Source: Cyanobacteria bacterium P01_H01_bin.74 (lineage in GTDB: Bacteria; Cyanobacteriota; Vampirovibrionia; Vampirovibrionales; Vampirovibrionaceae). Taken from it: 64,000 bases of DNA. How positions within the stretch are numbered: position 1 is the first letter of the stretch; the number at the start of each line of letters is the position of its first letter. Of this stretch, positions 20,416 through 31,371 are shown piece by piece. The stretch covers positions 871-64,870 of the forward strand of contig JBCDLA010000002.1 of the NCBI GenBank assembly GCA_038745945.1, read 5' to 3'. The notes below the pieces were generated by a model, which was not told the origin of the DNA, did not search any database, and worked only from the letters and a program-made list of their open reading frames with translations. Made by a program: the position numbers and the translations under genes.

Positions 20416-21219
20416 TTAAAATATTTTGGCATAGTAATTCAAGTGTTCAATCACCATCTGCATAAAGATGGTTAATGTAATCCACATAGTCGCCAAACCT
20501 ATCGATGGCTTTAATGCAAAACTCAGCTGAAACACCGGGATCTGCTGGGCTGTCCGGTTGACCACACCCAGCATCAAATCAACGGCCATGGTGACTACAA
20601 TAGCCGGAGAAACCATTTGAACCCCGATGGACAGAACATGGCTGGACAAGTGGACCAAATACGACAGATCAATCGCTGTTCTGAAATCGTGTGTCACACT
20701 GTACAACGGAAATACTTCTAAACTGTGGTGCAATGCATTAATCAGCCAATACATGCCACCCAGGTACAGAAAGACACCAATGGCAATAAAACTAAATAAG
20801 GTCTCCAACAGCATGGTCTGAGACCCCTGAGAGGGATCCATAATCATGGCCGAAGACAATCCAATCTGATTGTTTAATACGTTGCCAGCTGCATTAATGA
20901 CTTGCAGAATCATGTTGGCAATAAAGCCAATAAAGGCACCGACCACCACATTTAATAAGATTTGAAGCATGTACACCGGATAAGCATCCATATTGTTGAC
21001 CACGCCTGCCGGATGGGGGGACACGGTAAACGAAAGCATTATAGTCAGGTAAACCGCCAGACTTATTTTTATGAGGATTGGAATATTTTTTCGATTAAAC
21101 AACGGGGCTGTTCGCATAAATGCCAATATTCTGAAAAAAAGCAAAAGTAGACCGTCTAAATACGGCCCAAATTTTTCGTACAGGCCCATATACGATTGCA
21201 GCGCCAGTGAGAAGTCCAT
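20416..21219 (-). CDS. fliR: flagellar/type III export apparatus protein FliR (SctT family)
   Basis: 267-aa polytopic membrane protein with FliR/SctT-like layout. Last gene of the Q-O-P-Q-R block. Confidence 0.75.
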   Translation of the reverse strand: MDFSLALQSYMGLYEKFGPYLDGLLLLFFRILAFMRTAPLFNRKNIPILIKISLAVYLTIMLSFTVSPHPAGVVNNMDAYPVYMLQILLNVVVGAFIGFIANMILQVINAAGNVLNNQIGLSSAMIMDPSQGSQTMLLETLFSFIAIGVFLYLGGMYWLINALHHSLEVFPLYSVTHDFRTAIDLSYLVHLSSHVLSIGVQMVSPAIVVTMAVDLMLGVVNRTAQQIPVFQLSFALKPSIGLATMWITLTIFMQMVIEHLNYYAKIF

Positions 21220-21284: not shown

Positions 21285-21818
21285 TTACGGTCTGGCTGAA
21301 TTCTCGGCTGAAGATTTGTCGAGTATCAATTGTTCAGCATGTGAGGCCGGATTTGCAGGAGTTTGACCTGGCTTAAAAACCCTTGTGCTTTTTGATGCAG
21401 AATCCACCTGTGATTGCCCACTCCAGCCTTTCATCAAAGCATTCAGCTTGTCTGAGTTGCCATCGGCGCTGTTAACTTGTGCCTCAAAAAAAGCACGGGC
21501 CCGGCTGTAGCCATCCGATTGACTGCTGCTTGGCTTCAAAACAAAAATGCCATCTTGCGGCAACTGATTAAAGGCAATAAAGGCCGCATCCCGAAAAAAA
21601 TTGGTCATTAACTCTATCATAAACCCCCCCCCCAAAAGCAGGACCAAGAAAACAGCCACTATTTTTGGTGCCGCAGAAATGGTTTGTTCCTGGACTTGAG
21701 TAACCGCCTGCAAAATGCCAACCACCAAACCAACACCTGCAGCAACCAGGGTGGTTGATAAAGAGAGCATCAGAACCAGTAGGATGCCGCGCTTTAAAAA
21801 TTCTAACAAGATTTCCAT
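21285..21818 (-). CDS. fliQ: export apparatus protein FliQ (SctS family) with ~90-aa hydrophilic C-terminal extension
   Basis: First 86 aa align with FliQ/SctS (…LVVGILQAVTQVQEQTISAAPKIVAVFLVLLL…). The ORF then continues in frame for ~91 polar residues (…SSSQSDGYSRARAFFEAQVNSADGNSDKLN…). Normal FliQ is ~89 aa. Confidence 0.7.
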   Translation of the reverse strand: MEILLEFLKRGILLVLMLSLSTTLVAAGVGLVVGILQAVTQVQEQTISAAPKIVAVFLVLLLGGGFMIELMTNFFRDAAFIAFNQLPQDGIFVLKPSSSQSDGYSRARAFFEAQVNSADGNSDKLNALMKGWSGQSQVDSASKSTRVFKPGQTPANPASHAEQLILDKSSAENSARP

Positions 21819-21842: not shown

Positions 21843-22475
21843 TTAATTAAAGCTCTGAACAAGGCCATTAACAACAAGCCCCCAACCATCAACTGCCACA
21901 AAAATTAATATTTTAAAGGGCAATGAAATAATGGTAGGCGACAGCATCATCATCCCCAAAGCAAGTAGGGTATTGGCTACAACCAGGTCAATAACAATGA
22001 AGGGAATAAAAATAATGAAACCAATTTCAAAAGCTGTTCGTAATTCGCTAATCATAAAAGCTGGAGCCACTTCCCAAATAGCCAAGTCATTGGGTGATTC
22101 AGGCGGTTTTTTTCGTGAAATCTGCAAGAAATAGGCAATGTCCTTTTCGCGGGTTTGTCGCATCATAAACTTTTTTAAAGGCTCTGATCCTCGTTCCATA
22201 ATCTGAACAACATCGCCTTTTTGAGCCATCACTGGGGCAATATTGGCATACATCTCCCCAAATACTGGTGCCATCGTATACATCGTTAATACCAAGGACA
22301 TGCCCACCATGACTATGCCTGGCGGAACCTGTTGGGTTCCAAGAGCAGTTTTCAAGATAGATAGCACAATGGTATAACGCAAAAAACTGGTCATGCTGGC
22401 CACCACAAAAGGAATGAGTGACAGGCTGGACATTAGGATAATTAGCTGTAAGGCCGGATCAAGGTTGCTGAACAT
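21843..22475 (-). CDS. fliP: export apparatus protein FliP (SctR family), no cleavable signal peptide
   Basis: Strong FliP/SctR identity: ASMTSFLRYTIVLSILKTALGTQQVPP, FMMRQTRE, ELRTAFEIGFIIFIPFIVIDLVVANTLLALGMMMLSP, PFKILIFVAVDGW. At 210 aa with a short N-terminus it resembles SctR, but the adjacent gene is fliO-like. Confidence 0.85.
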   Translation of the reverse strand: MFSNLDPALQLIILMSSLSLIPFVVASMTSFLRYTIVLSILKTALGTQQVPPGIVMVGMSLVLTMYTMAPVFGEMYANIAPVMAQKGDVVQIMERGSEPLKKFMMRQTREKDIAYFLQISRKKPPESPNDLAIWEVAPAFMISELRTAFEIGFIIFIPFIVIDLVVANTLLALGMMMLSPTIISLPFKILIFVAVDGWGLVVNGLVQSFN

Positions 22476-22610: not shown

Positions 22611-23132
22611 TTACTTGCCTGTTCGACTGGCTATCAGCCAACGAATACTGCTCAAGAACCGCTCTTGAAACCCATTGCCACCAACCATAGTGCCAGCCCT
22701 CTGGTCACGGAAGAGCCTACGTACAGGATGCTGTTGGTAGTTTTCTTCTTGAGCATGCGGTTGATACCAGGGCTGACTGGCTGTGAGCGCGTCTCCAGTT
22801 TCAGCATCTGGGGTTTTAGACAAGCGTTCCAATGCAGAAACAGGCTCCAACCGAGACAGCAGTGAAACGGTATTATTACTGTTGGAAACCAGAAACCGTT
22901 CATCACCGTTGCGAATCACATAAACAGACTGCACGGGAGACAGGGCCAATGAAGACTCAATGCCCAGTTCAGGATGATCTGTGTCTTGTGAAAGACCGGA
23001 TGCCCCTGCAGAAGCATTGCTGCCCCGTTTGCCGCTCACCAGCCAATAGGTTAAGTAAAGCACACCCAGTGCAATAAAAGTGTACAGTATAAAAGAGCCC
23101 AAGTAGTATTCAATACTGTTTGCTTCAATCAT
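22611..23132 (-). CDS. fliO: FliO-like small single-pass membrane protein
   Basis: N-terminal TM (LGSFILYTFIALGVLYLTYWLV), then a KRG...ASAGASGL... segment, then SPVQSVYVIRNGDERFLVSNSNNTVSLLSRL. This parallels E. coli FliO (…ISASASLGARERVVVVDVEDARLVLGVTAGQINLLHKL). Position between the fliN-like gene and fliP matches flagellar operons. Confidence 0.5.
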   Translation of the reverse strand: MIEANSIEYYLGSFILYTFIALGVLYLTYWLVSGKRGSNASAGASGLSQDTDHPELGIESSLALSPVQSVYVIRNGDERFLVSNSNNTVSLLSRLEPVSALERLSKTPDAETGDALTASQPWYQPHAQEENYQQHPVRRLFRDQRAGTMVGGNGFQERFLSSIRWLIASRTGK

Positions 23133-23177: not shown

Positions 23178-24626
23178 TTAATCCCAGTCTTCATCATCAT
23201 CGTCAAAAGCATCATCCAGATCACTTAAGGGGTCTGTTGCTTCCGAGAGTCCCGCAACATCAGAGTCTGGTTGCTCAAGTGGGTCATTAACGCGTGTTTG
23301 ATTAACCGAATTGTGTGCCTCAACGGTTGTCAAAGAAAGGCTGGTTTCAGTGTCGGACTCTGTCATTTTTACAGCCCGAACGCGCACGCCAAACTTGTCG
23401 CCAATAATTAGAAGCTCTCCTTCGGCAATCGGTTTGCCATCCACTTGCAATGTCACCAGATTGTTAACAACATCGCCAAGTTCAACCACAATGCCTTCTG
23501 AGATTTGTTTTAAATGCTTTAACGGCAGTTTAACGGGGGGCAGTTCTGCAATTAAGTCAACATGCAGATTGTCCCAAAGGCCTGAACTCTTCTGTCCTTG
23601 AGAATCTTCTGAATCGGCATTGCCCAGACTGACCATAGTTAAAAAGTCCTTTTCATCAGGGGGGATTAAGCTTTTTTTGCGGGCAGGATCCCACTGGATT
23701 AAAAACGCACTGCCCAAGCTGGTTTTTTTGGAAAACTGGGCGGGACTCCCAGGCCTGCATTCTGAAAAAAACAAAGTATCGCACTGGCTCTCATCCAGTA
23801 CAATCATATCACCCGGTTCAATTAAGTGCAGCTCACCCAGCTTGACCTTGGTTTTTCCCAAGACAAGTTTCGACAACAGGGTCATCTGGAAAAAGACAGC
23901 ATCTGAAAAGTCTTGCTCTGTGTTGGGCCTGCTTTTTTCGGCGGTAAAATCAATGGCCTCAATTGCCACTTTGACCAGCAACTGACCCAGGTCTGCATTG
24001 ACTCCTTCATTGCTGGCATTGCGCTGCGGGCTTGAAATTACCCAGATTAAGTCAATAAAGCCATCAGCATTGTCTGGCAACTGATTGTAAATAATTTGGG
24101 TTGCTGCCTGATGTTGTGCCAGTTTTGTACCTTCTGAAATAAGTGCTGAGTCCTTGAAAGCCAAAGACAGCTGCTTTGAAAAGGCTTGGAATAAGCTGTT
24201 TTCCAAAGGCGTCACCTGATCTAATGAAAAGCCGTTGCCATGGTCTTCTTCGGGCGATTGCCCCAGTGACGCATCAAGAAGCTGACTGCACAAGGGCTCA
24301 GAAAACCGCCACTCGACGACGGTCAATGCGTCCAATGAAACCAGTGGCTGTAAATGGGCCATATCAATGGATGACACATGAAATCCGCCTGCCTGTTGGC
24401 AGAAATAATGGGGTTGTTCACTGGCACCGAGAAACTTCACCGAAAATCCCTCAATGCCCCAAAAGTTTTGCAAAGACATTGCGATGTCTTCTGAAAATCG
24501 GGTGGCCAGATTCAGAATGGGTTGCCAGGCAGATGCAAAGGGGACAACCGTGATTGTCTCAAGCAAACGGGGGCTCACCCCGGTTGAATCTGAAACCAAT
24601 GCATTCATATGGTGCTGATTACCCAA
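23178..24626 (-). CDS. type III/flagellar C-ring protein of the SctQ/FliN(FliY) family with two SpoA domains and an acidic C-terminal tail
   Basis: Two SpoA-like (FliN fold) segments: …TLLSKLVLGKTKVKLGELHLIEPGDMIVLDES… and …LPLKHLKQISEGIVVELGDVVNNLVTLQVDGKPIAEGELLIIGDKFGVRVRAV…. The poorly conserved N-terminal 250 aa is typical of SctQ. No FliM-type LSQEEIDALL/GGXG motifs. Ends in DLDDAFDDDDEDWD. Confidence 0.65.
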   Translation of the reverse strand: MGNQHHMNALVSDSTGVSPRLLETITVVPFASAWQPILNLATRFSEDIAMSLQNFWGIEGFSVKFLGASEQPHYFCQQAGGFHVSSIDMAHLQPLVSLDALTVVEWRFSEPLCSQLLDASLGQSPEEDHGNGFSLDQVTPLENSLFQAFSKQLSLAFKDSALISEGTKLAQHQAATQIIYNQLPDNADGFIDLIWVISSPQRNASNEGVNADLGQLLVKVAIEAIDFTAEKSRPNTEQDFSDAVFFQMTLLSKLVLGKTKVKLGELHLIEPGDMIVLDESQCDTLFFSECRPGSPAQFSKKTSLGSAFLIQWDPARKKSLIPPDEKDFLTMVSLGNADSEDSQGQKSSGLWDNLHVDLIAELPPVKLPLKHLKQISEGIVVELGDVVNNLVTLQVDGKPIAEGELLIIGDKFGVRVRAVKMTESDTETSLSLTTVEAHNSVNQTRVNDPLEQPDSDVAGLSEATDPLSDLDDAFDDDDEDWD

Positions 24627-24847: not shown

Positions 24848-26320
24848 TTAGACAGGGGCCAACTGCTTCAGTGTGGCATTGGCCTCTTCAATATTACCCT
24901 CAAGCCCCATGGTTACGGTCTTGGCTTTGGTGGCTGCTTCTGCAGAGGTTCGTGCCATTTCTTGTGCCGCCTGATTGAGCTCACCAATGTTTCGGGTAAT
25001 TTCAGCAATACCCTGCAACGAGTCTTCAACCCGACTGGCAACATTACTGGATAGCTCAGTGGCTTCCGTCACATTTGAGGCAACATTCTTGGTGGATTGC
25101 GCCGTTTGGGTAATGTTGCCAGAAATCTCATTGGAAACAGCAGTCTGCTCTTCAACGGCGCTGGCAATAGTGCTGTTAATGTCGTTAATTTCGCCAATAA
25201 CGGTTGCAATGGTGTTGATGGCAGAAATAGACGTATCGGTGTTTTTCTGCATGCCTTCCACCTGAACCCGAATGGTCTCTGTGGCTTGCGCCGATTGCTT
25301 TGCCAGCTCTTTGACCTCATTGGCAACAACGGCAAAGCCTTTTCCTGCATCACCGGCACTGGCAGCCTCAATGGTGGCGTTTAATGCAAGCAGATTGGTC
25401 TGGGCGGCAATCTCTTTAATAATATCCACAATTTTACCAATTTCTTTAGCAGACAAAGCCAGGTTCTCAACGGTATTTTTCGTTTCATCCGCTTTTTCTG
25501 TGGCACTTTCTGCAACAGCAGATGCTTTTGCAGCATTTTCAGAGACTTCTTTTAATGAAGAAAGCATTTCCTGGGTGGATTTGGATACAGTCTGCATCGT
25601 CTGGTTAATGTCTTCAACCGCCTGGGTAACCACGGTCATTGAATCGCTCATTTTGTTGGTCGATTGTCCAACATTACCCACGTTTTCTTCAATGGTATTA
25701 CTGGCCCGCAGCACTTCCTGAATGTTGGCAGTCGACTCTTCAACCGCACTGGCCACGGTAGAAACATTGCTATTCAAATCAGAAACGTTGTCTAACACAT
25801 CGTTTAAAGAGACCACCAGTTTTTTAGAACTGGTTTGTTTCACTGTATCGTTGTAAATGGTAATGGCAATGTCAATATCAAGGAAAGCAGCCCTCAACAA
25901 GCTTTGGAATGCCAGTGTTTTTTTGGCAAGGGGTACTTTTTTCTCTTCAAATGCTTTCATCATGGCTGCTACCATTTCTGCAATGGCAAAGCTATAGCCA
26001 CCCAGATAAAATTGCGGCTCAATGGCGCGTTCTTCGTGGGTACGTCCTATTTTTTCAATCCGCTGCATATAGCTTTCATCAAACACCCCTGAAAATAAGC
26101 CTTCCCAATGGCGCTGCTGAGCTTTTTTGGCATATTCTGCGGAACTGGCTGTTTTAAACTTAGCCTGCAGTTGTGGCCATTGAAAGATATGCTCGTAAAA
26201 CTTGTCTAAAACCGGGCCAATATGATCTTTAATGGCCGGCATCACCACGTCTTTCAAGGACTCTGATGTCTCTTGATTGATTTTTAAAAACCGAAGCCGT
26301 TCTTCACGCGAGGTGCTCAT
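24848..26320 (-). CDS. soluble methyl-accepting chemotaxis protein with N-terminal globin-coupled sensor (HemAT-like)
   Basis: N-terminal protoglobin/sensor-globin domain (…KDHIGPVLDKFYEHIFQWPQLQAKF…EPQFYLGGYSFAIAEMVAAM…). C-terminal MCP signalling domain with the highly conserved tip (…TETIRVQVEGMQKNTDTSISAINTIATVIGEINDINSTIASAVEEQTAVSNEISGNITQ…). No TM segments. Confidence 0.75.
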   Translation of the reverse strand: MSTSREERLRFLKINQETSESLKDVVMPAIKDHIGPVLDKFYEHIFQWPQLQAKFKTASSAEYAKKAQQRHWEGLFSGVFDESYMQRIEKIGRTHEERAIEPQFYLGGYSFAIAEMVAAMMKAFEEKKVPLAKKTLAFQSLLRAAFLDIDIAITIYNDTVKQTSSKKLVVSLNDVLDNVSDLNSNVSTVASAVEESTANIQEVLRASNTIEENVGNVGQSTNKMSDSMTVVTQAVEDINQTMQTVSKSTQEMLSSLKEVSENAAKASAVAESATEKADETKNTVENLALSAKEIGKIVDIIKEIAAQTNLLALNATIEAASAGDAGKGFAVVANEVKELAKQSAQATETIRVQVEGMQKNTDTSISAINTIATVIGEINDINSTIASAVEEQTAVSNEISGNITQTAQSTKNVASNVTEATELSSNVASRVEDSLQGIAEITRNIGELNQAAQEMARTSAEAATKAKTVTMGLEGNIEEANATLKQLAPV

Positions 26321-27234: not shown

Positions 27235-30200
27235 GTGGCACCGATGACATCAGAAGACAATCCGAATACCCTCTCTCATTTTCTCTTTAAAACGCTGGTA
27301 CTAACGGGGATGCGCCCCCTGCGCGACCAGGCATTTAACAGCACCCGCAACGCCAAAATTTCAAAAACTGAAAATGAGGCCCTCGATGCTGGATCTGTGG
27401 GCTACGAACAGGAAATTATTGCGGGCAGCCCCCAGTGGGAAAAGCTCTTGAATATGCCGACACCAGCCCTGACCCGGGAAGAGGAAGCCTTTATTGACGG
27501 CCCTGTTGAAACCTTGTGTGCCATGCTGGATGACTGGGAAATTCGAACACAAACCCACGATCTGCCCGCTGAGGTCTGGCAGTTTATGAAAGACGCTGGC
27601 TTTTTTGCCCTGATTATCCCCAAGGCCTATGGCGGACTGGCTTTTTCTGCACGGGCCCACTCCGATATTATTTTAAAACTGGCCAGTCGCAGTGCAACAG
27701 CATGTGTCACGGCCATGGTGCCCAATTCTCTGGGGCCTGCCGAATTGCTGGCAGTTTATGGGACTCCGGAGCAAAAAAGCTATTATTTGCCCCGGCTGGC
27801 CCGTGGTGAAGAAATTCCGGCCTTTGGCCTGACAGAAACCAATGCCGGCTCAGATGCCTCCAGCATGACATCCGCTGGTACAGTTTGCAAAAAAGACGGC
27901 GTGCTGGGCATTCTACTGAACTGGGACAAGCGTTATATCACACTCAGCCCCATTGCCACCTTAATTGGCATTGCCTTCAAGCTTTCTGATCCAGACCACC
28001 TGCTGGGCGATGAAGACGATCTGGGTATCACGCTGGCCCTCATTCCAGCCAGCAGCCCGGGGGTTGAAATTGGCCGGCGGCACAACCCGCTGGGGGTTCC
28101 GTTCCAAAATGGGCCGACTTCCGGGAAGGACGTGTGGGTTCCTATTAATGCCATTATCGGCGGTAAAGAGTATGCTGGCCAGGGCTGGCGCATGCTGATG
28201 GAATGCCTTTCCGTAGGCCGGTGCATTTCATTGCCTGCCTTATCCGTTGGATCTGCCAAATTGGTGACGCAAATGGTCACCGCCTACAGCCGGGTACGTC
28301 AGCAGTTTAAACTGGCCATTAGTCAATTTGAAGGCATTGAAGAAATGATAGCCCGCATTGCCGGGCACACCTATTTAATGGAAGCAGCCCGGGTGGCCAC
28401 GTTGCAAATGCTGGATCGCGGGGAGCACCCCACGATTTTATCTGCGGTAATGAAGTACCACACCACCGAAATGGCCCGTACCATTCTCAATGATGGCATG
28501 GATGTGCTGGGCGGCAAGGCCATCTGCGAAGGGCCTGACAACTTAATGGCGGCACTCTACCATGCCATCCCTATTGGCATTACCGTAGAAGGGGCCAATA
28601 TATTAACGCGCAACTTAATTATCTTTGGGCAAGGTTCGGTGCGCTCTCATCCCTATCTGTTGAAAGAACTGCGGGCAGCCAAGCTGGAAGACCGCAAGGC
28701 TGCAAAAGCGGCCTTTACAAAGCTGATGGCATTCCACGTGGCAGACAGCACCCGAAACGGGTTTAACAGCGTTTTGTTCGGCCTGACAGACGGCCACCTG
28801 AGCAATACCCCAGCCTGCTCCGCTACTGAGTATAAGTATTTTAGGCAGATTAACCGCTTGTGTGCGGCCTACGCCACGATGGCTGACATCACACTGATGC
28901 TTCTGGGAGACGGGGTAAAGCGAAAAGAGCGGATTTCTGCCCTGCTGGGGGATACAATGAGTTACCTGTACCTGTCCAGTTGCGCGCTTCGGCATTTCCG
29001 GATTGAAGGCAGCCGTGAAGAAGACAAGCCACTGATGCAATGGTCTTGTGAGTATCTGCTGTTTAAGGCCGAAGACAGTCTGGCCACACTGATTCATAAC
29101 TTTCCGCTGCCCAGTGCCTTGCAGTGGGCCAATCCGTTTCTCTACCTGCTGGTCTTTCCAAAAGGCCGGCGATTTAACCAGGCCAACCACCGGCTGGACA
29201 AAGCGGTGGTAAACGCTGTGATGAAAAACCCTGAAACCCGTGCCCGCTTGACCAGCGGGGTGTATCAGCCCCAAAACACCGATGAACCCTTGGCCGTCAT
29301 GGAAGCAGCATTCAGTGCTGTGGTTCACGCGGACACCACATTAAAAACATTGCGCCAGCAGAAAAAAGCGGGCAACTTGGCGGGTGATTCCCCGGAAGCC
29401 TGGGTGAATGACGCACTGGAAAAAGGCTTAATTACTGAAGAGCAAAAGCAACAGCTGGCCACTGCCGAGCAGTTGCGCCAGCGGGTCATTCGGGTGGATG
29501 ACTTTAATTTGAATTTGGATCCGGTTGAAAAAAAAACGGCACTGGCCAACGGTAAAACCCTGAGAAATCAGTATCCGCTGGGCACGCCCTGGCAGATAAA
29601 TATTCCGCGGCAAACACTTGTGGATGTACTCAATAAAAGCGTGGCCCACTTTGGCAAACTCAATGCCATTGACTCAATGGGCAAAAAGTACACCTACGAG
29701 GAACTGGGCGATCTGGTCCACAAGGTGGCCGCCGGGCTACAACACCTAGGCGTTCGAAAAGGCGACAAAGTGGCGCTGTTTATGCCCAACACGCCTTACT
29801 ACACCATCTTTTTCTTTGCCATTGTGAAAGCCGGGGCTGTGGTGGTCAATGTATGCCCGGTTCTCACGACACCGGAAGTAAAAGAACAGCTGGAAGACAG
29901 TGAGACCAAGGTTCTTGTAACACTCAATTTAAAAAACACCTTTGAAAAGGCAGATGCCCTTGGCAAGGCCAAAGTGGTGGAGCATGTGGTGGTTTGCCCC
30001 ATGAGCGAAGTGTTGCCATTCTTAAAAGCCCAGGCCTTCCGTTTTTTGCGCAAAGACAGTGTTGTGAACCTGGATAAATTATCGACAGATGAAGCGGAAA
30101 ACAAGCACCTGGTAACTTATAAAGCAGTGGTCAACAGCAGAACCCCGTATTGTCCGCAAAAAATCTCACCAGATGATTTGGCAGCCCTCCAGTATACCGG

Positions 30201-31371
30201 GGGAACAACCGGATCGCCCAAAGGGGCAATGCTGACCCATTATAATCTGCTGGCCAACGTCTATCAGATTGAACATTATTTTTTAGAGAGTGCCAACAAA
30301 CCCAAAACCGATGCCCTCCTGGCACAGGGAAACGAACGCGTTTTGGGCAATATTCCGTTTTTTCATATTTTTGGGTTAACGGTTGCCATGTTGTGCACGG
30401 TTAAAATGGGCAACGAGTGCATTATTCTGCCCGATCCGCGCAACACCAAAGACACCTTAAAAGCCATCCACGAGAAAAAGCCCACGCTTTTTCCTGCGGT
30501 GCCGCGCCTGCTGCAATCACTGAAGGAAAATCCCAAAGTACATCAATACGATCTAAGCTCACTAACTACCGTTATTTCAGGTGGCGCCGCACTGCCTGAA
30601 CAGCTTAAGCAAGCCTTTGAGGCACTGGCCAAGACCCCAGGCCTCATCAAAGAAGGCTACGGCCTGACGGAAGCATCACCCGTCATTGCGTGCAACCCGG
30701 CTTACGGCAACAACAAGGTCAATTCGGTGGGGCTGCCCTTGCCCAAAACCCAGATTAAAATTGTGGATGCTGAAAATCCGAACAAAACGTTGCAGTTGGG
30801 TGAAGTGGGTGAAATCTGCATTCAAGGGCCGCAGGTGATGCTGGGCTACTACAAGCAATCCGCTGAAACAGCCGAAGTGATTATTGACGGCTGGCTGCAT
30901 ACCGGTGATTTGGGGTATATGGACGACACCTATTACATCCACATTACTGACCGCAAAAAGCGCCTGATTCTGGTCAATGGCCTGAATGTCTACCCGACGC
31001 AAGTGGAAGCAGCCATACACCGACACCCGGCAGTCGAGGAATGCCTGGTCATCAGCGTGCCGGATCCCCGTTCTGGTGAAGCCGCGAAAGCCTTTGTTCG
31101 GCTAAAAACAGGCCTGGGGGCTTACCCATCTGCAGAAGATATGATAAGGTTTTTAGCAAAGGATCTCAGTCGGATTGAAATTCCGAAACACCTTGTGTTT
31201 GTGACAGAGGAGTTGCCAAAAACCAGTGTTGGAAAGCCCGACTGGAAAACCCTGCAGGACAGAGAGCGAGGCTTGCCCCTTCAAGTGGGTGAGCCCGATG
31301 ACGCGGACACTGTCCCGTTACTAGAACATCCAGAAGAAGATACTGCATATCCAAAACAAGAACAGGCATAA
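27235..31371 (+). CDS. natural fusion: acyl-CoA dehydrogenase (FadE-like, N-terminal ~780 aa) + long-chain acyl-CoA synthetase (FadD-like, C-terminal ~590 aa)
   Basis: N-terminal part is collinear with E. coli FadE from ...SKTENEALDAGS... through ...VIRVDDFNLNLDPVEKK (…LARGEEIPAFGLTETNAGSDASS…, …GITVEGANILTRNLIIFGQG…). The same frame then continues into a FadD-like AMP-binding enzyme: VALFMPNTPYY, LQYTGGTTGSPKGAMLTHYNLLAN, GYGLTEASPV, GWLHTGDLGYMDDTYYIHITDRKKRLILVNGLNVYP, KTSVGKPDWKTL. A single 1378-aa ORF (GTG start; alternative ATG at 27244). Confidence 0.8.
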   Translation: MAPMTSEDNPNTLSHFLFKTLVLTGMRPLRDQAFNSTRNAKISKTENEALDAGSVGYEQEIIAGSPQWEKLLNMPTPALTREEEAFIDGPVETLCAMLDDWEIRTQTHDLPAEVWQFMKDAGFFALIIPKAYGGLAFSARAHSDIILKLASRSATACVTAMVPNSLGPAELLAVYGTPEQKSYYLPRLARGEEIPAFGLTETNAGSDASSMTSAGTVCKKDGVLGILLNWDKRYITLSPIATLIGIAFKLSDPDHLLGDEDDLGITLALIPASSPGVEIGRRHNPLGVPFQNGPTSGKDVWVPINAIIGGKEYAGQGWRMLMECLSVGRCISLPALSVGSAKLVTQMVTAYSRVRQQFKLAISQFEGIEEMIARIAGHTYLMEAARVATLQMLDRGEHPTILSAVMKYHTTEMARTILNDGMDVLGGKAICEGPDNLMAALYHAIPIGITVEGANILTRNLIIFGQGSVRSHPYLLKELRAAKLEDRKAAKAAFTKLMAFHVADSTRNGFNSVLFGLTDGHLSNTPACSATEYKYFRQINRLCAAYATMADITLMLLGDGVKRKERISALLGDTMSYLYLSSCALRHFRIEGSREEDKPLMQWSCEYLLFKAEDSLATLIHNFPLPSALQWANPFLYLLVFPKGRRFNQANHRLDKAVVNAVMKNPETRARLTSGVYQPQNTDEPLAVMEAAFSAVVHADTTLKTLRQQKKAGNLAGDSPEAWVNDALEKGLITEEQKQQLATAEQLRQRVIRVDDFNLNLDPVEKKTALANGKTLRNQYPLGTPWQINIPRQTLVDVLNKSVAHFGKLNAIDSMGKKYTYEELGDLVHKVAAGLQHLGVRKGDKVALFMPNTPYYTIFFFAIVKAGAVVVNVCPVLTTPEVKEQLEDSETKVLVTLNLKNTFEKADALGKAKVVEHVVVCPMSEVLPFLKAQAFRFLRKDSVVNLDKLSTDEAENKHLVTYKAVVNSRTPYCPQKISPDDLAALQYTGGTTGSPKGAMLTHYNLLANVYQIEHYFLESANKPKTDALLAQGNERVLGNIPFFHIFGLTVAMLCTVKMGNECIILPDPRNTKDTLKAIHEKKPTLFPAVPRLLQSLKENPKVHQYDLSSLTTVISGGAALPEQLKQAFEALAKTPGLIKEGYGLTEASPVIACNPAYGNNKVNSVGLPLPKTQIKIVDAENPNKTLQLGEVGEICIQGPQVMLGYYKQSAETAEVIIDGWLHTGDLGYMDDTYYIHITDRKKRLILVNGLNVYPTQVEAAIHRHPAVEECLVISVPDPRSGEAAKAFVRLKTGLGAYPSAEDMIRFLAKDLSRIEIPKHLVFVTEELPKTSVGKPDWKTLQDRERGLPLQVGEPDDADTVPLLEHPEEDTAYPKQEQA

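Follow-up and report, generated by a model that had tools for sequence, protein, structure and literature searches.

A conserved C-terminal tail doubles the length of the flagellar export-gate protein FliQ in the Vampirovibrionia lineage

The FliQ protein encoded in a 64,000-nucleotide stretch of Cyanobacteria bacterium P01_H01_bin.74 (contig JBCDLA010000002.1, positions 871 to 64,870; hereafter the window) carries a C-terminal tail of 90 residues. The analysis shows this tail to be genuine, conserved, subject to selection and restricted to FliQ proteins of the Vampirovibrionia lineage. No subunit of the type III export gate is smaller than FliQ, and few vary as little in size; all solved structures consist of a bare hairpin of 80–90 residues. 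Within the flagellar export machinery, where FliQ ranks among the most invariant parts, the long-tailed form is an elaboration that is clear, conserved and so far unexplained. FliQ itself is known; a literature search found no mention of a C-terminal extension of FliQ, or of FliQ length in Melainabacteria, and the long-tailed form is previously undescribed.

A FliQ with a conserved C-terminal tail

The fliQ gene occupies 21285..21818 on the minus strand (177 codons plus the stop codon at 21285–21287). It was located from the list of open reading frames (ORFs), from Pfam PF01313 and from an exact match to an NCBI protein of the same metagenome-assembled genome (MAG), to which it is identical ('MAG: flagellar biosynthetic protein FliQ [Cyanobacteria bacterium P01_H01_bin.74]'). 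Residues 1–87 (21558..21818, minus strand) form the core, two hydrophobic helices and a hairpin loop, QAVTQVQEQTISAAPK, as delimited by Pfam, PDB alignment, AlphaFold2 and Foldseek. The match to PF01313 (Bac_export_3) covers residues 5–75 and scores 75.9 bits against a gathering cut-off of 25. The NCBIfam equivalog model for FliQ, TIGR01402, gives 71.6 bits, which is under its cut-off of 88.9 and above the 61.4 bits of the injectisome model TIGR01403; judged from its sequence, the protein is a divergent FliQ.

AlphaFold2 predicts core helices at residues 2–42 and 49–84, with a predicted local distance difference test (pLDDT) score of 78–90. The best Foldseek matches in the PDB are SpaQ and FliQ chains, aligned over 80–86 columns with target-normalized template modelling scores of 0.57–0.61; their weak E-values (0.014 to 0.9) are expected for so small a fold. 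Loop residues Q37–T46 and A49–K52 are invariant among 116 homologues. Two of these invariant residues, E44 and K52, align with residues 46 and 54 of Salmonella FliQ in a register of +2, and presumably have the salt-bridge role of that pair. The gene lies between fliP and fliR in a minus-strand series with the order fliO, fliP, fliQ, fliR. By its profile match, its hairpin fold, the residues of its loop and the position of its gene, the window protein is a FliQ.

The usual size of the family (~81–94 amino acids (aa), with nothing past the hairpin) is typical of FliQ and SctS and not a defining criterion; the window protein has 177 aa and continues for 90 residues past the core. NCBIfam FliQ/SctS models are 81–88 positions long, and the FliQ and SpaQ chains in the PDB have 86–89 aa and align to window residues 2–83. 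These lengths, together with the extent of the Pfam match, put the end of a canonical FliQ near residues 87–90. The tail that follows, residues 88–177 (21288..21557, minus strand), is hydrophilic.

A search with the full-length protein listed 120 clusters: 116 of 159–180 aa, which span ~95% of the query, two that are truncated and two 280-aa tandem fusions. A scan of one genome per species found a relative in 577 genomes, and the best 80 of these were inspected as loci; names or sequence types assign all of them to Vampirovibrionales or Gastranaerophilales. Every one of the 80 has a FliQ ORF of 162–170 aa. Relatives with names are Vampirovibrio, Vampirovibrionales, Gastranaerophilales and 'Candidatus Melainabacteria', and belong to the non-photosynthetic class Vampirovibrionia (Melainabacteria). 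Two assemblies of Vampirovibrio chlorellavorus (L003 and L054), one of them strain NCIMB 11383, are among the best 80. V. chlorellavorus, which infests algal cultures and reaches its prey by swimming, is to our knowledge the sole cultured member of the group. Homology, along with the reported motility of this species by a single polar flagellum (an observation cited in PMC4451040) and its orthologue of 170 aa (P0038), suggests that the window protein is a working part of a FliP5Q4R1 gate.

Selection on the tail was assessed by the Nei–Gojobori method, with the window gene and the 80 loci aligned by codon, using the 295 pairs with unsaturated synonymous divergence (dS). The tail has a median ratio of nonsynonymous to synonymous divergence (dN/dS) of 0.31, compared with 0.09 in the core, and close pairs have tail values of 0.02–0.07. 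The tail is under purifying selection, weaker than that on the core. Its codon usage is gene-like in the annotated frame alone (+0.32 bits per codon, with +0.39 for the core; the other five frames are negative), and the chance of 91 stop-free codons at the local base composition is ~0.005. Orthologue comparison, coding potential and dN/dS together rule out a chance ORF.

An initial annotation of the window, made from the sequence, had proposed a genuine FliQ appendage at 21285–21560, which corresponds to residue 87 through the stop codon; the 177-aa ORF is as quoted there and extends ~90 residues past the canonical end. It had also suggested a comparison with orthologues, the outcome of which favours a real extension. 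Its alternative, that a sequencing or assembly error in the window MAG removed a native stop following residue ~88, is vanishingly improbable and we exclude it: the source is a metagenome-assembled genome, a run of nine G lies inside the fliQ core (~21625–21633) and some related MAG FliQs are clearly frameshifted (for example P0150, P0156 and P0256), but frame, length and motifs are the same in over 116 independent clusters and at each of the 80 species loci, both V. chlorellavorus assemblies included, and are kept across hundreds of related genomes from independent assemblies and under purifying selection, coding potential is positive in the annotated frame alone, and the G run codes for a conserved GGG at residues 63–65. 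The statement that FliQ is almost invariantly 85–90 aa long does not hold for this bacterial lineage, in which tails range from 11 to 90 residues.

Long-type MAG FliQs that are frameshifted or truncated within the tail and have out-of-frame ends (P0150, P0156, P0256 and P0205) could be assembly errors or pseudogenes, and short 'FliQ' calls in the clade need checking.

Motifs, relatives and origin of the tail

The tail of the window FliQ is rich in Ser, Ala, Lys and Gln. Tails in the long-FliQ alignment measure 72–87 residues (standard deviation 3.9), with a family median grand average of hydropathy of −0.91 and a median net charge of +5 from ~13 Lys/Arg, the distal part being net positive. An extra transmembrane helix in the tail was rejected because no hydrophobic segment is present, the best 19-residue Kyte–Doolittle window having a family median of −0.12.

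Mean column conservation among the 116 long FliQs is 0.80 in the core and 0.36 in the tail, where the signal resides in four islands (all on the minus strand). Motif A, defined from column conservation and translation, spans residues 88–96 (21531..21557) and reads QDGIFVLKP in the window protein (consensus QDGxF(I/V)LPP). Motif B, residues 106–114 (21477..21503), reads RARAFFEAQ (consensus RARxFFxxQ) and lies inside a predicted helix at residues 102–116, over which conservation has a period of 95°, equivalent to a single conserved helix face. Motif C, residues 123–132 (21423..21452), reads DKLNALMKGW (consensus DKLKxFxxxW) inside a second predicted helix (residues 122–132). A variable linker (residues 133–157, 21348..21422, minus strand), with a mean conservation of 0.25 and pLDDT <50 at residues 136–148, connects these to motif D, residues 158–168 (21315..21347), which reads ASHAEQLILDK (consensus LxxxEKMxLxK) around Glu162; conservation alternates every second residue over residues 158–170. 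Glu162 is present in 113 of the 116 homologues, Gastranaerophilales-type tails (..FVETKKILGR) among them, and F111 in 110. We define the long-tailed FliQs of Vampirovibrionales and Gastranaerophilales by a tail of 72–87 residues with LPP in its proximal motif and Glu at the centre of its distal one; the window protein, with all four motifs present, is one of them.

Gastranaerophilales tails have a different middle, ..VLxxDYYKYTTPFEGEM..IMKNPGKVPYID..PKPNFVETKKILGR, and retain the proximal motif, the Phe and the distal Glu. They are highly conserved among themselves, with an invariant or near-invariant stretch M-K-N-P-G-K-x-P-x-x-D. AlphaFold2, run on a single chain with the 116-sequence alignment, predicts tail helices at residues 102–116, 122–132 and 160–173 with pLDDT 60–78 (means of 67–79 in ten-residue blocks), a low-confidence linker, and a pLDDT of ~50 for a tail of the Gastranaerophilales type. 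The picture from these models is of a tail that would be largely unstructured, with short docking motifs, and not a folded domain.

All long-FliQ loci inspected contain one stand-alone module of five genes, encoding FliN/SpoA-like (~370–480 aa), FliO-like, FliP, FliQ and FliR proteins. These modules lie in unrelated neighbourhoods, and no flhB or flhA follows in the loci inspected. Long FliQs of the Melainabacteria type also occur in bins labelled Oculatellaceae, Acutalibacteraceae, Muribaculaceae, Bacteroidaceae, Clostridium, Clostridia and Alistipes (L001, L027, L031, L033, L039, L044, L057, L058, L060, L069, L071 and L072), and at L027 the gene belongs to a complete module of five. Mislabelling or contamination of these bins is probable.

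The full-length search appears to list only proteins of roughly query length: a search with the core alone (residues 1–88) gave no self-match and lengths that end at 154 aa, which suggests a limit to lengths near that of the query. Many matches of the core-only search are fragments or frameshifted MAG genes. The complete relatives of 98–154 aa that it revealed, several on long contigs, refute the notion that a long tail is universal in the class. Short-tailed relatives share the core signature QAVTQVQEQTIAAAPK and have tails of 11–60 residues. They include a 98-aa protein whose tail ends ..MVLPPGR (P0169; L084, 260 kb contig), proteins of 110 aa (P0238; L085, 382 kb contig), 119 aa (P0151; L087) and 147 aa (P0172; L089), and a 134-aa group (P0258 and P0231, 134–136 aa; L088) of at least 10 clusters that includes 'Melainabacteria bacterium GWF2_37_15'. 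A proximal hydrophobic-(I/V)-L-P-P motif is found in most related lineages, several short-tailed ones included, and some proteins end just past it. Hence the short-tailed Vampirovibrionia FliQs resemble the long-tailed ones in core signature, for the most part in the proximal LPP motif and, in L084, L088 and L089, in the five-gene module, but they lack motifs B–D, the 134-aa group retaining only the Gastranaerophilales-type IMKxxGKVPY. Gene calls upstream of fliP at L085–L087 include neither FliMN_C nor FliO. The nearest named proteins to the AroA encoded at L084 are from Vampirovibrio sp. (57% identity) and Melainabacteria (54%), which places the short-tailed forms inside or beside the same class. 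Tail length, from 11 to 90 residues, is lineage-specific, with the window protein in the longest class. Because sister lineages manage with 11–60 residues, the tail is accessory and not part of the core export mechanism.

The order fliP-fliQ-fliR is constant in all related loci inspected, some of which have a further gene separating fliQ from fliR. A small gene (112–173 aa) occupies this position in many Gastranaerophilales, in total at about 30 of the loci L001–L080, and in the 134-aa-FliQ lineage (for example L081 5845–6264, L034 6496–6948 and L088 5389–5910). Its product has a signal peptide or a single transmembrane helix, occurs in at least three subtypes and has no Pfam or NCBIfam match; most subtypes carry a C-terminal F-E-x-x-D-x-P-P-like motif resembling F(I/V)LPP of the FliQ tail. 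The window is without this gene, fliR lying 65 nt downstream of fliQ. In the 98-aa FliQ lineage, an unrelated 228-aa ORF in which no hydrophobic segment was seen lies between fliQ and fliR (L084 8347–9033), and a 100-aa ORF lies between fliO and fliP (L084 7005–7307). The fliQ–fliR junction seems to be a hot spot of lineage-specific additions.

The 280-aa tandem FliQ–FliQ fusion (P0003/P0004; L081 5001–5843, also L082 and L083) is found on 14 contigs from several sources, within a FliMN_C-FliO-FliP-FliQQ-X-FliR module that adjoins a flagellin gene. The tail of the first copy is reduced to a linker of ~35 residues whereas that of the second is full. The short first tail joins the N terminus of the next subunit, which shows that the tail starts beside the N terminus of a neighbouring subunit. 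Known gates contain an even number of FliQ subunits, four, with which a covalent dimer is compatible.

The tail by itself, as a profile of residues 84–177 built from 48 diverse sequences, was compared with 1.84 billion representative proteins and gave 19 matches, all FliQs or FliQ fragments except for one false match to a repeat protein (P0129). No Pfam or NCBIfam match lies within the tail, and Foldseek against the PDB matched the core only, with no structural match for the tail. A fusion with a known or separately encoded protein was rejected, as the tail-only profile, Pfam and NCBIfam give nothing beyond FliQ. Compensation for a missing piece of FliP or FliR was likewise rejected: FliP (210 aa; 21843..22475, minus strand; Pfam FliP), including its periplasmic domain, and FliR (267 aa; 20416..21219, minus strand; Pfam Bac_export_1) are collinear with their solved homologues. 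With no relatives outside FliQ and no compensating change in FliP or FliR, the tail looks, on sequence grounds, like an innovation of this lineage and not a captured domain.

Placement and possible role of the tail

In known systems, FliP5Q4R1 is a helical assembly within the membrane–supramembrane (MS) ring, above the plane of the membrane, with the Q subunits outside; the N and C termini of P, Q and R are oriented alike, and contact with the membrane is limited to the tip of the Q ring (bioRxiv 10.1101/249128). The C terminus of FliR is periplasmic (PMC7064499) and the termini of SctS face the periplasm (PMC6863770), while a loop of FlhB wraps the cytoplasmic base of the FliQ hairpins (PMC7064499; PMC13308203). 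The helix flanks of the window FliQ are acidic (−1 at the N terminus, −3 at the C-terminal flank) and its loop is neutral; these charges and the invariance of the loop fit an N-out/C-out arrangement. The initial annotation had allowed for either a cytoplasmic or a periplasmic tail. Solved homologous gates and helix-flanking charges narrow this to a tail that probably faces the periplasm.

For a tail whose translation and retention are predicted from the sequence, we infer the following location, partner and role. Our preferred account, which we hold with slightly better than even confidence, is that the four tails are periplasm-facing docking arms outside the gate and within the MS ring, where they position or stabilize it. 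Four copies of the canonical hairpin would wrap the outside of the FliP5–FliR1 gate as in known systems, and the tails would emerge on the periplasmic side, at the outer surface of the gate, as flexible arms of ~90 residues. Motif A, F(I/V)LPP, would run along the gate surface. The two amphipathic helices of motifs B (RARxFF) and C (DKLKxFxxxW) would dock onto a neighbour together with motif D, centred on Glu near the C terminus; candidate neighbours are the periplasmic domain of FliP, the FliF ring on its inner face, a periplasmic protein specific to the lineage and the raised membrane. Docking may then position or stabilize the gate during assembly.

Several observations weigh against this account. 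The distal tail is basic (median +5), which is unfavourable to translocation, and the positive-inside rule alone would suggest a cytoplasmic location. The confidence of AlphaFold2 in the tail is modest, and FliP and FliR have no compensating insertion or deletion. The tail is moreover dispensable for basic gate function, since the same module occurs with tails of 11–60 residues and the first copy of the fusion has lost most of its tail. Finally, V. chlorellavorus is listed with a second set of gate genes, fliP-fliQ-fliR-flhB-flhA (genes 2600255743-47, fliQ being 2600255744), besides spoA-fliO-fliP-fliQ-fliR (genes 2600256627-31; PMC4451040 Table S3). Its 170-aa FliQ lies in the latter module (loci L003 and L054). 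Duplicates are also recorded for flhA, flhB, fliE, fliF, flgB, flgE, fliH, fliJ and fliO (PMC4451040 Table S3).

As a tentative and rather doubtful elaboration of the docking arms, the tails, alone or in combination with the small periplasmic proteins whose genes separate fliQ and fliR in some relatives, could form a periplasmic collar or tether joining the gate to the surrounding ring. If true, such a collar would be a Melainabacteria-specific element of the basal body, absent from all basal bodies solved so far.

It is unlikely that the tail is a transient assembly aid only, acting in FliQ insertion, in setting subunit number or in keeping the FlhB site free, with no structural role later. 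A motif-bearing tail of low-to-moderate model confidence would suit such an aid, and the natural FliQ–FliQ fusion suggests that subunit pairing is important. FliP–FliR need the assembly factor FliO, and FliQ occupancy is variable and labile in detergent (PMC7911332; PMC7064499). Against this, a FliO-like gene is still present in the window module, and sequence does not distinguish transient from permanent contacts.

A tolerated and essentially functionless read-through, in which a disordered appendix created by loss of a stop codon has since drifted, is quite improbable. Tail lengths that range from 11 to 90 residues between lineages sharing one core, a dN/dS of 0.31 that is about three times that of the core, low AlphaFold2 confidence, above all for the Gastranaerophilales type, and the loss of most of the first tail in the tandem fusion are what drift would leave. 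However, dN/dS is well below 1, and as low as 0.02–0.07 in close pairs; length is tightly held within orders (standard deviation 3.9); the motifs and Glu162 are common to orders whose tails are otherwise unalignable; and the M-K-N-P-G-K-x-P-x-x-D stretch of Gastranaerophilales is near-invariant.

Least probable of the functional readings, and in our view very unlikely, is a cytoplasmic tail that contacts FlhA, FlhB or the ATPase complex and regulates gate opening or substrate entry. The strongly basic distal part (median +5) is as the positive-inside rule expects of such a tail, and cysteine labelling of EscS was first read as showing cytoplasmic termini (PMC6863770). Yet all solved FliPQR and SctRST complexes have the Q termini periplasmic and the loop at the cytoplasmic base, and the invariance of this loop in long FliQs implies that the core should sit as in solved gates. 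In addition, the tail has no hydrophobic segment with which to recross the membrane and the flank directly after helix 2 is acidic.

Known export gates and neighbouring genes

The window protein resembles canonical FliQ and SctS (Salmonella FliQ, 89 aa, PDB 6F2D/7CGO; SpaQ, 86 aa, PDB 6PEM) in its Bac_export_3 match, hairpin, loop Glu/Lys pair and gene position. Canonical proteins differ in being half the length, no solved homologue has a 90-residue hydrophilic tail, and the window FliQ scores under the TIGR01402 cut-off. Lineage-specific additions to other gate proteins have been described, namely an N-terminal domain on FliP of Vibrionales and a FliR–FlhB fusion in Clostridium (PMC7064499), as well as FliO with LysM or AMIN domains (PMC12403147). 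Each is, like the FliQ tail, an extra segment on a conserved gate or gate-assembly protein in one lineage, but on another subunit and terminus; none is on FliQ. LysM and AMIN domains bind the cell wall and hence are periplasmic. Whereas the LysM, AMIN and FlhB additions are recognizable domains or whole proteins, the FliQ tail is poorly structured and without relatives outside FliQ.

A conserved, size-doubling tail across a large lineage suggests that the outer, periplasm-facing surface of the gate can bear extra parts, and points to lineage-specific contacts between the gate and the surrounding ring. It is also a natural handle for structural biology, a tolerated C-terminal addition on FliQ, and the natural covalent FliQ dimer is a second such resource. 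In a study of Campylobacter jejuni, FLAG-tagging of FliQ was reported to be unsuccessful (PMC12403147).

The remaining genes of the window module lie upstream of fliP. The fliO-like gene (173 aa; 22611..23132, minus strand) matches Pfam FliO at 29 bits (cut-off 22). The module begins with a gene for a FliN/SpoA-like (SctQ-like) protein of 482 aa (23178..24626, minus strand), the sole recognizable part of which is a C-terminal FliMN_C domain (residues 353–417); its orthologues also match SepQ_C. By sequence, this protein looks more like the SctQ/FliY type than a plain FliN. Directly upstream of the flagellar module, 24848–26320 (minus strand) encodes a chemoreceptor with an N-terminal protoglobin domain and a methyl-accepting chemotaxis protein signalling domain. 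Further along, 27235–31371 (plus strand) encodes a 1378-aa protein in which an acyl-CoA dehydrogenase with its full set of domains (N, M, C and bacterial C-terminal) is joined to an AMP-binding acyl-CoA synthetase; genes for a thiolase and a hydroxyacyl-CoA dehydrogenase/enoyl-CoA hydratase follow, and the whole looks like a fused beta-oxidation operon.

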